Origin: a virus
Lineage: Duplodnaviria; Caudoviricetes
Virus record (IMG/VR): IMGVR_UViG_3300020814_000535
DNA length: 64,000 bases
Direction: 5' to 3' (one strand)
Shown: in pieces, positions 11,688-31,464 of the stretch
Layout of the letters: each line of letters starts with the position of its first letter
Position numbering within the stretch: the stretch's first letter is position 1
Program-made: the position numbers and the translations under genes
Notes under the pieces: model-generated
Databases searched by the model: none
Seen by the model: the letters and a program-made list of their open reading frames with translations, nothing else
What the model was told of the DNA's origin: nothing

Positions 11688-12839
11688 ATGCCTTACAGAG
11701 TATTTAGATTACCTCTATTTCCCACAAAGAAACAAGTATCTATATTAAAACACACGTCTCAAGAATTTACTAGGGCATTTAATTTTGTCTGTGAGATTGG
11801 TTGGGAGAACCATTGTAAAAATGGAGTTATTCTTCACCATTTAACCTATAAGGAATCAAAAACTAAATTTCCTAGCCTTGTATCAGACTTCCACGTACAA
11901 GCACGGGTCAAAGCTACAGGAGCCTTAAAAGCTCTTTTTACAAAAGCCAACAAGGGTCAAAAGGTATCGCAACCTAAATCGCTTGGCATTTCTCCTTTAT
12001 ACGAAAAACATACATTTAAAATATATTGGGACAGAGGCTTCGTCCGTCTATCGACCACTTCTGGCAGGCAATCGATATTATTTAGCATTCCAAAATATGT
12101 CGCAAAATACTCTTCGTGCAAAGAACGTTCAGCCGAATTAAAAGAGAGAGACGGCAAATGGTTCCTTAATGTTTCTGTAAAATTAGAAATTCCCGAAATC
12201 CAGAAGTCAGCCCAAATCACAGGCGTCGATCTTGGTCTTTCAAACCCCGCAGTAACTAGCAACAACAAATTCTTTGGGAAACGTCGCTGGAAAGCCACTG
12301 AGAAAAAGCATTTCAATCTTCGAAGGAATCTTCAAAAAGCGGGCACCAAAAGTGCTAAACGACACCTGAAACGCCTTCGCAGGAAACTTGCTAGATTTCA
12401 TCGGGATTGCGACCATGTCCTTTCGAAACAAATTGTTCAGTCTGTAGAGCCTGGAAGCACTATTGTTCTTGAGAATCTAAAAAACATTCGTAAAACTGCC
12501 AAGGTCCACTATGGCGCTCAAGCACGACGTCTTCATTCCTGGAGTTTTGCACAACTAAAATCCTTTATTGAGTACAAAGCAGAAGAACGCGGTTGTACGG
12601 TGGTTGGGATTGATCCCCGACATACCTCGCAGACCTGCAGTCGCTGTGGGCACGTAGCCCGCAACAATCGGCGTTCTCGTGCATGGTTTAAATGTAGAAA
12701 GTGTGGTTTTCAACTCCATGCCGATCTCAATGGTGCAAGAAATATTACTGCAAAGTACCTTGCTAACGAGAGTAAATCCCTCGTTAGTGGGCTGCCTGTC
12801 GATCAGCCTATTGTAGATATATCTCTATCTACAAGTTAG
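11688..12839 (+). CDS. tnpB: IS200/IS605-family TnpB RNA-guided endonuclease
   Basis: RuvC motifs GVDLG, VLENL and HADLNGARNI; zinc ribbon TSQTCSRCG...FKCRKCG. Confidence 0.95.
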   Translation: MPYRVFRLPLFPTKKQVSILKHTSQEFTRAFNFVCEIGWENHCKNGVILHHLTYKESKTKFPSLVSDFHVQARVKATGALKALFTKANKGQKVSQPKSLGISPLYEKHTFKIYWDRGFVRLSTTSGRQSILFSIPKYVAKYSSCKERSAELKERDGKWFLNVSVKLEIPEIQKSAQITGVDLGLSNPAVTSNNKFFGKRRWKATEKKHFNLRRNLQKAGTKSAKRHLKRLRRKLARFHRDCDHVLSKQIVQSVEPGSTIVLENLKNIRKTAKVHYGAQARRLHSWSFAQLKSFIEYKAEERGCTVVGIDPRHTSQTCSRCGHVARNNRRSRAWFKCRKCGFQLHADLNGARNITAKYLANESKSLVSGLPVDQPIVDISLSTS

Positions 12840-29000: not shown

Positions 29001-30923
29001 CTAAATCTTAGACTCAAGAAAAGCTTTCCACGCATACTTAATCATATCTTTGTCAAAATGATGGATAGCCGATTCTCTTCCCTTTTGACCAATCTGTCGG
29101 GCAAACTCTTGGTCATTAAGAAGGAGCTGAATGTACATTCTCAACTCTTCTTTGCTATCAGAAACAAATCCATCTACTCCATTGGTAATCAAGCGGGGGA
29201 TTTCGTAGAGGTTGTGGCCAGCAAAATAACTCGCATTCCCTTTCTCAGGGCCAATAGCTACAATAGGGATACCCGAGTTATGGACTATAAATCCTTCGGC
29301 TCGATAGACTCCGTCTTTTGTTGAAAGATTATATACTCTTCCTTGAAATGGCTTTCTGGTAACAGATTTAATCCTCTTTGGTTTAATGTTCTTATCTTGG
29401 TCAAGCAATCTATTTCGTATTGAGAGTAAGCTGTCCTGTACTTCTGATTCAATCTGCTCTTGATGAAACCAATCAAAATTCCACATTGCTCTTTTTTTAT
29501 CAAGAGACAAGGATGCAATGCCTCCAACAAGTTCAACATCTTTAAGCCCTTCAACCAGAATTCGAAACTTACTTTTCGTCTCTGAAAAAACTCGTTCGAC
29601 CTCTTTGAAATCCCCTGGTTGGCTGTCTCGAATTTCTTCCCAAGCCACTTCGTTAAACATTGATCTGTATTTGTTATCTGCAAAATCGGGACTATTTTTC
29701 TGCGTTTTTTGTCCACCTTGAAGGACAGCGTCCCCTCCCCATCTATGATGCCTGCTAAGTAAGAGATCTCGCATGGCGTCATAGAAAATTCCAGAGGTTT
29801 GAAAGTAATCGAGTTCTGGCGTTTTAAACCCTCTGTTCTGAACTTCATCGTTATTGACCAATAACTCCTGTTCGGGAGCAAAGGCATCAATTCGTTCATC
29901 GGTTTTTTGTAATTCTCTAGCAATATCTCCAATTCTTCTTTTGTCCACTGAGTCACAATTAGCCTCCTGGTATTGATAGATACTATCTAGTATACCAAGA
30001 TTCTGCGCTTCTACAAAACCTCTTTGTGTCAAAAAAGGATGAGTTGGCGTACACGAAACGGATTGGCCATCCTCTGTAACAATTGTCAGCAAATCTCCTT
30101 TGTACTCCTTGATTAAAACATCTTCTATTTCGGTGTCAGAACTCACTAAAGTTTCTTCCGGAAAACACATCCAAGCCTCCATAAAATTCAGCGTGTAACT
30201 AGCTGGATGAGTTCCTGTGTAGAAATAAACTCTATTGCTATTCATCTCTTTCCTGAGATCGTCGTATTCGAGCTTGCCGCCCCAGAAAGGAATCCCGTCA
30301 TTACCGGGTCCATAGAGAACTCGATTGAATGGCCGAGTCACATCTTCAAAGAATGTGTAATTGCACGCGGCATCTCGAATCTGCATCGACTGACAAAAAG
30401 TTACGACCCGTTCTTTCTCTCCCGTCCAAGGTCCATATTCAGCAGGATCTTTGCCAAAACGAATAAAAGCATCCTGTCCAATAAAGCCAGGAATGTTTGC
30501 TTCCATCGGCGAGTAACGAACAACCTGCATTCCTCGTTCTCTGTAGGGACGCATGGTGTTTTCCGTGCTAGCTACAGACTGACCAATTGTTCGCCAGATA
30601 ACTCTCTTGTGTCTAATATTGACCCAATTCTCTGTAATGTATTTAGGCACATGCATTGCGATAATGACATCAAACTTATCTGCAATCTCTCTCGTAATAT
30701 AGGTTTTGCCGTCTTGTCCTGGACGAGCTTCCTCAAGCTTTTGCCACATCTCAACCATTTCGGGATCATACTGGAGATCTGGCATTGGAGGCCGCATGCC
30801 ACCTCCACCCGTAGCTGGATGCCAATAAGCTCCAGGGGAGAAAACCTCGTATCCCAATTCTCGAAAGATTCTTAACTCGTCATACTCGAGAATGGAATGA
30901 CAAGACAGATAAAGAATCTTCAA
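29001..30923 (-). CDS. GT4-like glycosyltransferase with intein
   Basis: The spliced product reads YTLNFMEAWMSGIPIV...ITNGVDGF...IGQKGRE. The start is probably TTG 30923 (AGGAG 7 nt upstream) rather than 30965. Confidence 0.88.
   Translation of the reverse strand: MKILYLSCHSILEYDELRIFRELGYEVFSPGAYWHPATGGGGMRPPMPDLQYDPEMVEMWQKLEEARPGQDGKTYITREIADKFDVIIAMHVPKYITENWVNIRHKRVIWRTIGQSVASTENTMRPYRERGMQVVRYSPMEANIPGFIGQDAFIRFGKDPAEYGPWTGEKERVVTFCQSMQIRDAACNYTFFEDVTRPFNRVLYGPGNDGIPFWGGKLEYDDLRKEMNSNRVYFYTGTHPASYTLNFMEAWMCFPEETLVSSDTEIEDVLIKEYKGDLLTIVTEDGQSVSCTPTHPFLTQRGFVEAQNLGILDSIYQYQEANCDSVDKRRIGDIARELQKTDERIDAFAPEQELLVNNDEVQNRGFKTPELDYFQTSGIFYDAMRDLLLSRHHRWGGDAVLQGGQKTQKNSPDFADNKYRSMFNEVAWEEIRDSQPGDFKEVERVFSETKSKFRILVEGLKDVELVGGIASLSLDKKRAMWNFDWFHQEQIESEVQDSLLSIRNRLLDQDKNIKPKRIKSVTRKPFQGRVYNLSTKDGVYRAEGFIVHNSGIPIVAIGPEKGNASYFAGHNLYEIPRLITNGVDGFVSDSKEELRMYIQLLLNDQEFARQIGQKGRESAIHHFDKDMIKYAWKAFLESKI
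29277..30167 (-). mobile_element. Intein (297 aa) with no in-frame endonuclease motifs
   Basis: Starts CFPEETLV; block B CTPTHPF; ends RVYNLSTKDGVYRAEGFIVHN/S. Confidence 0.92.
29285..29956 (-). CDS. LAGLIDADG homing endonuclease with N-terminal Myb/HTH-like domain, nested in +1 frame inside the intein
   Basis: YLAGIIDGEGT, LQITNTD and PCLLIKKEQ; AGGAGG lies 6 nt upstream of the GTG start. Confidence 0.88.
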   Translation of the reverse strand: MTQWTKEELEILLENYKKPMNELMPLLPNRSYWSITMKFRTEGLKRQNSITFKPLEFSMTPCEISYLAGIIDGEGTLSFKVDKKRRKIVPILQITNTDQCLTKWLGKKFETANQGISKRSNEFFQRRKVSFEFWLKGLKMLNLLEALHPCLLIKKEQCGILIGFIKSRLNQKYRTAYSQYEIDCLTKIRTLNQRGLNLLPESHFKEEYIIFQQKTESIEPKDL

Positions 30924-30933
30924 TGGTTTGCTC

Positions 30934-31464
30934 CTAAGAATTTTTCTTTTGATTTTCATTCGCAACAGTAGTTGTCGTATTGATTAGCTGTTTTACAGAC
31001 TTCTTATATCTTTTGACAGCCGTTCTCGCTGCGCCAACCGTCTTAATATTTCCCTTTTCAAAATGCTTACATGTAGTCAAACGATGAATCGCTCTTTGGT
31101 ATTTGTTACACCAACCATTCTTTCGTTTACCATGAGAGCGAAGAAATTCCTGGGCATCTTTTGATAGCTTGTTAAATTGCGCGTACTTACACCATGTACA
31201 ACATTCAGCTATCTCAAGGTCAGGAAGTTCATAGAGAGCAATCATCGGCTCAACAGAAACATTGTAAAAATCGCCAGGAGACTCGGCCAAACGAACATAA
31301 TCAACAGTTGGCTTTGGTTTGTTAAGCATAATTGGCCTTGAAGACAATAGCTTTCCTTTTTCAACATGGACTCTATCTTGCAAAGCGTCAACCAACATTT
31401 CGGGAGGCAGCGGCCTTCGTTTCTCTTGTTCTTCTCTTGAAAGAGGAGGGAGTCTTTTTCTCAT
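30934..31464 (-). CDS. Hypothetical basic Cys-cluster protein
   Basis: CCTWCKY...WCNKY...TTCKHF. Confidence 0.65.
   Translation of the reverse strand: MRKRLPPLSREEQEKRRPLPPEMLVDALQDRVHVEKGKLLSSRPIMLNKPKPTVDYVRLAESPGDFYNVSVEPMIALYELPDLEIAECCTWCKYAQFNKLSKDAQEFLRSHGKRKNGWCNKYQRAIHRLTTCKHFEKGNIKTVGAARTAVKRYKKSVKQLINTTTTVANENQKKNS

Follow-up and report, generated by a model that had tools for sequence, protein, structure and literature searches.

A putative homing endonuclease gene nested in the +1 frame of a phage glycosyltransferase intein

How might an intein spread if its own reading frame encodes no endonuclease? The question is raised by a glycosyltransferase gene in a 64,000-nucleotide (nt) stretch of the viral record IMGVR_UViG_3300020814_000535 (Duplodnaviria; Caudoviricetes), referred to in full as the window. 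The gene (29001..30965, minus strand) encodes a precursor of 654 amino acids (aa) from a TTG codon, or 640 aa as called in databases. It is interrupted by an intein, within which a 223-codon open reading frame (ORF) runs on the same strand in the +1 frame. An earlier model-made analysis of the DNA (the sequence-only reading) described both ORFs, and both are present where it placed them. Taken together, the evidence below makes it highly probable that this intein is mobile and that a separate gene nested in it encodes its homing endonuclease. Related loci and host protein homologues are identified by L and P numbers, respectively.

The intein and its nested gene

The insertion is a 297-aa class-1 intein (29277..30167, minus strand), identified by PF14890, TIGR01445, alignment with empty alleles, and fold matches. 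The Pfam Intein_splicing family (PF14890) matched it at 41.7 bits, over the cut-off, and Cys1, block B TPTH, block F VYNL, the terminal His-Asn, and Ser+1 are all present, confirming that the splicing motifs are intact. C1, H43, H296, and N297 are invariant across six alleles. The insertion point, EAWM|SG, lies a few residues past the Glu that matches the GT4 EX7E motif, and the intein corresponds to an exact gap in the host homologues P0065, P0066, P0067, and P0069, as expected of an in-frame insertion. Both ends of the structural model are confident beta strands. The N-terminal splicing region (residues ~1-68; 29964..30167), with Cys1 and block B, had predicted local distance difference test (pLDDT) scores of 77-95; the C-terminal region (29277..29384), with block F and the terminal His-Asn, is overlapped at +1 by the last motif and tail of the nested protein. 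Residues 91-191 scored below 50. All listed fold matches of the model were inteins or hedgehog HINT domains, with inteins exclusively at the top, at a modest E of ~1e-3 because of this filler. The centre of the intein had been described as lacking an endonuclease motif, and indeed Pfam gave no endonuclease family match in the intein frame, which differs from the canonical layout with two motifs in frame (DOD). Nor are the intein halves divided between two ORFs as in split inteins: one 654-aa frame stays open, with stops actively avoided.

The nested gene (29285..29956, minus strand) begins with GTG, ends with TAG 8 nt ahead of the intein end, and putatively encodes a 223-aa homing endonuclease with a Myb-like domain and a single LAGLIDADG motif. 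The Myb-like domain (residues ~1-44; 29825..29956) has three modelled helices (6-15, 20-26, and 32-42), and a profile of the first 50 residues matched c-Myb repeats at E values of 1e-7 to 3e-9 (repeat 3 at 1e-7). The LAGLIDADG motif, YLAGIIDGEG (29732..29761), contains Glu74, the putative metal-binding residue. An IKKEQ motif (29486..29500), aligned to I-MsoI, contains Lys154, which we take to be the counterpart of the I-CreI active-site lysine. A68, D72, G73, E74, G75, and K154 are invariant in 58 homologues.

A total of 61 homologues of the +1 ORF were found, many of them annotated as PF00961 or PF14528. Neither Pfam nor NCBIfam matched the window's own +1 protein, and its relatives match PF00961 and PF14528 weakly; the LAGLIDADG assignment stands instead on the homologues, on matches to PDB sequences, and on fold. 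The family profile matched the PDB sequences of I-MsoI and I-CreI. The protein model (pLDDT 92) has one LAGLIDADG helix with a terminal acidic residue in an alpha-beta-beta-alpha-beta-beta-alpha fold, and its best fold matches were I-CreI, I-CvuI, and I-MsoI, at E ~1e-7. Sequence and model thus support an I-CreI-type product that carries a Myb-like domain at its N terminus, as the sequence-only reading had proposed. A Gad1 match (E 0.044) fell under the cut-off and was rejected, as was, on motif and fold, the label "HNH endonuclease" carried by PHROGs matches. The final 28 residues of the nested protein, encoded over the C-terminal splicing region, show little conservation, and L007 and L013 lack them; they are therefore considered incidental read-through.

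Selection on the two overlapping frames

The host frame reads without a stop through extein, splicing domain, ~190 aa of filler, splicing domain, and extein. This arrangement recurs. The full-length host homologues P0063, P0064, P0145, and P0161 each have, at the site used in the window, an intein of 295-297 aa whose +1 nuclease gene is intact. The layout is common to L001, L002/L003/L006, L007, and L008, whose nucleases are 74, 68, 53, and 30% identical to that of the window, respectively, and it was also seen in 11 more distant inteins.

The ratio of nonsynonymous to synonymous substitution rates (dN/dS) among the window, L001, L002, and L007 was 0.10-0.26 at +1 and 1.1-2.0 in the intein frame. 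Between the window and L001, amino-acid identity was 0.76 in the +1 frame and 0.56 in the intein frame, and substitutions at the three nuclease codon positions numbered 33, 28, and 75, with an excess at the third. The high intein-frame ratio is attributed to the shadow of selection on the nuclease frame, as has been argued for the dnaX intein considered below.

Stops in the intein frame are systematically avoided. In the window, T ends none of the 37 nuclease codons at whose junction it would create a stop, versus 32 of 71 at safe junctions. Across five alleles, T occurred at 0 of 37, 34, 32, 28, and 33 stop-risk junctions and at 28-45% of safe ones. Synonymous resampling of the nuclease, which used the codon usage of the window genome for all five alleles, left the intein frame open in 0 of 20,000 trials, with 18 stops expected. 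All eight codon pairs quoted earlier as examples of this avoidance are in the sequence, although the third bases at risk junctions are C, A, and G (18, 12, and 7 cases), not C alone. No long gene of the genome has a longer same-strand alternative-frame stretch than the 233 codons open here at +1.

The frame-specific dN/dS and synonymous-shuffle checks proposed in the sequence-only reading thus bear out its claim that selection keeps both frames open. Purifying selection at +1 together with stop avoidance indicates that selection maintains the protein sequence of the nuclease and, in the intein frame, an open reading frame; in the overlap, selection on the intein frame acts mainly against stops rather than for filler sequence. 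Dual coding kept by selection is supported. The host precursor would excise the whole 297-aa intein, filler included, and so restore the glycosyltransferase; the only constraint on the filler would be to stay free of stops. The nuclease gene secures this at no cost, since it avoids T as the last base of codons followed by AA, AG, or GA.

Expression signals within the intein

The sequence-only reading placed a Shine-Dalgarno AGGAGG (29963..29968) 6 nt ahead of the GTG at 29956, and the coordinates of both this signal and the stop codon were confirmed. AGGAG is kept in L001 and L002; the signal is not family-wide, as L007, L008, and L009 have neither AGGAGG nor a clear alternative. A start codon is kept 3-6 codons ahead of a conserved Trp in all six alleles of this site type, which makes independent translation of the nested gene likely, as first proposed.

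Just upstream lies a 36-nt block (29964..29999) that is invariant and contains an extended -10 element, a palindrome, and the arms of a predicted hairpin. The -10 element (TG-G-TATACT) has TG at 29997 and TATACT at 29994-29989; the 13-bp palindrome TAGATA-G-TATCTA lies at 29989-29977. In the predicted hairpin, the 5' arm takes in the -10 box and the 3' arm pairs with the first half of the Shine-Dalgarno. Degenerate codons identical in the window, L001, and L002 amount to 12 of 12 in the block versus 50 of 212 elsewhere in the gene. By our arithmetic, the chance of such identity is ~3e-8, or ~1e-5 when the post hoc choice of the block is allowed for. A transcript beginning 6-8 nt past the -10 box lacks the 5' arm of the hairpin, and the predicted cost of opening the Shine-Dalgarno is lower on the short transcript than on the long one (0.7 versus 4.4 kcal/mol in L001, 3.0 versus 6.6 kcal/mol in L002).

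Promoter-like sequences recur at this place in other alleles. L007 has TTTACA-17-TATAAT, the top site in its locus, and TATAAT with a 5/6 -35 box 17 nt upstream is found at the same position in both L007 and L093. Promoter-like scores, computed with approximate sigma70 frequencies as weights, exceeded those of synonymous shuffles (p<0.1) in 16 of 30 +1 inteins and in 0 of 10 other inteins. Fisher p values were 2e-4 for the 14 LAGLIDADG cases, 3e-6 for 16 with Vsr-like nucleases, and 0.57 for the 10 others, and 4e-6 after near relatives were dropped. Genome-wide, the extended -10 motif occurs at nine sites, three of them within 100 nt of a start, and is not obviously a genome-wide phage promoter. 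In L015 (2450-2490), TTGACC-18-TATAAT is followed 7 nt downstream by the nuclease ATG, a spacing that suggests a leaderless transcript.

An internal promoter in the N-terminal coding sequence of the intein is thus fairly well supported, as judged from sequence. The nuclease would be translated from its own GTG, probably on a short transcript from this sigma70-type extended -10 promoter. On the long host mRNA, the hairpin would mask the Shine-Dalgarno, a control resembling that of T4 I-TevI, and the palindrome may serve as an operator; we offer the hairpin switch and the operator as hypotheses.

Could the nuclease be made without a promoter of its own, either by +1 ribosomal frameshifting a short way ahead of its start, which would fuse it to the N-extein and N-terminal intein part, or by internal initiation on the long mRNA? 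The register of the nested ORFs fits this explanation, since all 31 nested ORFs of other loci lie at +1 and none at +2; the +1 frame opens ~10-12 codons ahead of the start in the window and its three closest relatives, and three alleles lack a clear Shine-Dalgarno. However, every allele keeps a start codon just ahead of the first conserved residue, a Shine-Dalgarno is present in the closest alleles, and -10 hexamers turn up repeatedly where they would be expected. For frameshifting in particular, inspection of the DNA alignment by eye showed no conserved slippery site, no formal test having been made. We consider this route improbable.

Mobility, distribution, and relation to known inteins

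At one type of GT4 site, four states were found: empty, full +1, mini-intein by deletion, and canonical in-frame. Empty alleles are abundant (L004 and most remaining host homologues), and full +1 alleles are present in the window, L001, L002/3/6, and L008. The mini-intein of L009 (1334-1804), a relative of L008, has lost ~420 nt in frame, spanning the nuclease core; what remains at +1 is an open 72-codon ORF that keeps its start codon, the Myb part, and the final LNxRG helix. L005 (6757-7899) carries a distant canonical DOD intein (PF14528) at the same glycosyltransferase junction, with a splicing domain 24% identical. Related inteins occupy the homologous junction of quite different GT4 paralogues in L007, L013, L015, and L093. 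A further homologue, P0001, is a 77% identical fragment with no contig on record.

Intein and host histories differ. The window and L001 are 87% identical in the splicing domain, 74% in the nuclease, and 62% in the extein; the values for L007 and the window are 59, 53, and 19%, and those for L008, which belongs to the window's own host family, are 42, 30, and 44%. L007 groups with the window in the splicing-domain tree (support 95/95) and adjoins it in the nuclease tree. Approximately unbiased (AU) tests rejected host-congruent trees (p 0.011 for the splicing domain, 0.009 for the nuclease, and 2e-5 for the extein); because they involved nine sequences or fewer and groups named post hoc, after the trees had been viewed, this evidence is only moderate. 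It indicates that nuclease and splicing domain move as one unit, also between GT4 paralogues. The earlier proposal that the element uncouples homing from splicing is therefore not supported as phrased, since the two parts travel together and just their expression is separate.

For the mobile intein with a nested nuclease gene, the following steps are proposed. The nuclease would dimerize like I-CreI and cut intein-less GT4 alleles near EAxM|S/T/C-G during co-infection, and repair would copy the entire intein with its nested gene into the cut allele. The element would have originated by insertion of a free-standing Myb-LAGLIDADG gene between the two splicing halves of an intein, with the frame left unbroken, and would decay by in-frame deletion to mini-inteins such as L009.

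Alternatively, the nested protein may no longer home, having become a DNA-binding regulator or a competition nuclease, or being in early decay with vertical inheritance. This is suggested by the Myb-like DNA-binding domain, by the palindrome beside the promoter, by the Myb part that L009 keeps in its +1 ORF after loss of the nuclease core, and by the GTG start and 3-residue insertion of the window nuclease, which are missing from its relatives. Against this, no catalytic position varies, purifying selection covers the entire nuclease core, the intein trees conflict with that of the host, and empty alleles lie scattered among full ones, so that loss of homing appears unlikely. An assembly artefact, in which two compensating indels pushed an in-frame nuclease out of frame, is scarcely credible: the same 640-aa host product is present in the JGI and Logan assemblies, homologues of 36-62% host identity from other assemblies show the same register, and indels cannot produce more than 190 codons open in both frames with systematic stop avoidance.

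Several observations weigh against a mobile intein with an independently expressed nuclease. The position of I-CreI Gln47 is occupied by Asn or Ser in the nested protein, and a clear palindrome was looked for at the empty target site and not found. Resolution in the nuclease tree is poor, and the tree gives no root for the origin. For the window's own sequence, the predicted cost of opening the Shine-Dalgarno drops just from 3.6 to 2.2-3.0 kcal/mol on the short transcript, and its mean accessibility is not raised. The hairpin is of modest stability (z -1.0 to -1.7) and, because its sequence is invariant, has no covariation to back it. A simple promoter scan did not list the window site, owing to its weak -35, and the promoter contrast between +1 and control inteins was borderline (p 0.052) once near relatives were dropped. 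On balance, we conclude that the element is real, conserved, and probably still mobile.

The host gene belongs to a run of glycosyltransferase and methyltransferase genes, a phage glycan-synthesis cluster. Its GT-B/GT4-like assignment is based on a weak PF00534 match on the C-extein and on intein-less homologues of 359-391 aa, several with PF00534 or PF13524. The source contig (188,653 bp) carries a short terminal repeat and genes for a major head protein, terminase, portal, tail sheath, and baseplate wedge, and is therefore assigned to a large tailed phage. A nearby glycosyltransferase-like gene (ORF 24561-22339, minus strand) holds a second intein of ~391 aa (23784-22612), which is canonical: its LAGLIDADG domain (PF14528) is in frame and has two motifs. 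Its last residues are Gly-Asn instead of His-Asn. A common origin of the two inteins was ruled out, as there is no significant similarity between them. A 383-aa ORF (11688-12839, plus strand) has an N-terminus that, we presume, recalls IS200/IS605 TnpB; a second such ORF lies beyond the window.

The breadth of the layout was surveyed in two scans, both motif-biased and neither a census. Among 196 distinct nuclease homologues in the fetched loci, 15 were nested at +1 in inteins and none at +2; the hosts are GT4 enzymes, other glycosyltransferases, and DUF2201 proteins. No single-motif homologue was in frame with an intein among the homologue loci scanned, which argues against a frameshifted canonical ancestor. 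A scan for just the splicing motifs added 16 inteins, mostly at the DExH motif of SF2 helicases, with +1 ORFs of 207-295 codons. Four of these ORFs that were tested matched DUF559 above the cut-off, and a profile built from some of the Vsr-like ORFs matched twelve. Single-sequence scans of viral contigs gave no matches; alignments were needed.

The inteins with Vsr-like +1 ORFs (L101, L103-L106, L111, L112, L116, L117, L120, L121, L124, L125, L127, L138, and L145) are from phages and interrupt mostly SF2 helicases at DE|CHH or DE|CQF; the nested gene encodes a Cys-rich N-terminus followed by a DUF559/Vsr-like nuclease and often sits behind a strong sigma70-like promoter. L228 (725-3034) has a +1 Myb-LAGLIDADG intein in a metagenome-assembled genome (MAG) of the archaeon Ca. 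Terraquivivens, which extends the layout to an archaeal assembly. In L095, L096, L100, and L140, ~320-aa inteins have a fully open antisense frame; that of L140 matches the Vsr-like profile (E 6e-7) and resembles the antisense Vsr inteins of Gosselin et al. discussed below. Long antisense open frames over many LAGLIDADG homologues had no intein match and were left out of the counts.

Free-standing relatives with the same domain layout agree with the earlier proposal that a free-standing gene invaded the intein. Such Myb-LAGLIDADG genes lie in L226 (1803-2567) and L227 (1839-2585), one an archaeal and one a bacterial MAG, between cysD-like and cysN-like (sulfate adenylyltransferase) genes named by motif resemblance. 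No group I intron or other Rfam family was found near four free-standing relatives. In the nuclease tree, nested copies group in a single region alongside free-standing Myb-LAGLIDADG genes; with this tree unrooted, the direction from free-standing to nested is inferred.

The +1-nested architecture itself is already known. In the cyanobacterial dnaX intein (Phillips, DeSimone, and Gogarten 2026, bioRxiv 10.64898/2026.09.14.751524), an intact intein frame with disordered filler overlaps an out-of-frame LAGLIDADG ORF with a putative Shine-Dalgarno; the nuclease frame has omega <1 and the host frame >1, the alleles include empty, mini, and full ones, and a secondary-invasion model is proposed. According to that preprint, the out-of-frame endonuclease was first proposed by Gorbalenya in 1998. 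Its "+2 ORF" is probably the same 1-nt offset as the +1 used here. The features that define the dnaX type were found here as well: a continuous frame with filler, purifying selection at +1, and, from few sequences, spread as one unit along a history incongruent with that of the host. Unlike the dnaX intein, the present inteins reside in phage GT4 hosts and in more than one host family, encode a single-motif I-CreI-type enzyme with a Myb-like domain (the dnaX nuclease was overlaid on I-WcaI), and offer evidence of an internal promoter and hairpin, paralogue transfer, and a canonical in-frame intein at the same site; the two nucleases are set apart by description.

Non-canonical inteins of actinobacteriophages (Gosselin, Arsenault, and Gogarten 2025, bioRxiv 10.1101/2025.01.02.630785) likewise encode an endonuclease in another frame, including I-CreI-like LAGLIDADG enzymes with extra terminal domains, and share the origin model and signs of continued spread. 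There, LAGLIDADG and Vsr-like genes are antisense and the sole same-strand case is endonuclease VII-like, in frame 3, whereas here it is the LAGLIDADG and Vsr-like genes that share the strand of the intein, at +1. Fractured genes (Dassa et al. 2009, PMC2677866), in which split inteins flank a free-standing endonuclease gene, similarly place that gene between intein halves; a hairpin and a promoter lie upstream of it, and its 3' end overlaps the C-terminal intein part. They have two intein ORFs, trans splicing, and Vsr-like or GIY-YIG nucleases, whereas here the intein frame is continuous. As in T4 I-TevI and Aeh1 mobE (reviewed in PMC2988022), an internal promoter would yield a short transcript without the 5' arm of a hairpin that sequesters the ribosome-binding site, and an operator would overlap the promoter. 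Those intron-encoded or free-standing GIY-YIG/HNH genes use T4 late promoters and their control was experimentally shown, whereas the signals here are predicted, sigma70-like, and written within intein codons. The homodimeric I-CreI, I-MsoI, and I-CvuI share the fold and the single motif per chain; they are intron-encoded rather than intein-nested, are 16-19% identical, and lack the N-terminal Myb-like domain.

The sequence-only reading thus implied too much novelty, as same-strand out-of-frame endonucleases, a Shine-Dalgarno, frame-specific dN/dS, and a secondary-invasion model had been published. Our literature search found no paper on glycosyltransferase inteins of the +1-nested type; what is added is the same-strand Myb plus single-motif LAGLIDADG gene in GT4 inteins, the promoter block embedded with it, the jump between paralogues, and the breadth of the layout.

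A broader view, which we advance only tentatively, is that same-strand +1 nesting is a common second standard design of phage inteins, in which the N-terminal coding sequence is overwritten by a promoter, hairpin switch, and possible operator, and varied free-standing nucleases (Myb-LAGLIDADG homodimers, Vsr-like) are expressed independently of host-protein synthesis and splicing. The layout solves a structural problem, since a homodimeric single-motif enzyme need not sit within the splicing domain. The four-state site is a compact test case for models of intein endonuclease gain and loss, and the invariant 36-nt block provides an experimental handle on hidden-gene expression, for which the accessible text of the preprints offers a putative Shine-Dalgarno only. 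Out-of-frame intein endonucleases are termed rare in the 2025-2026 preprints (10.1101/2025.01.02.630785; 10.64898/2026.09.14.751524). If +1 nesting were a second standard design, protein-level intein surveys would class such inteins as degenerate, and the ~30 distinct cases, all at +1, from two small scans suggest that "decayed" inteins may often hide an active nuclease.

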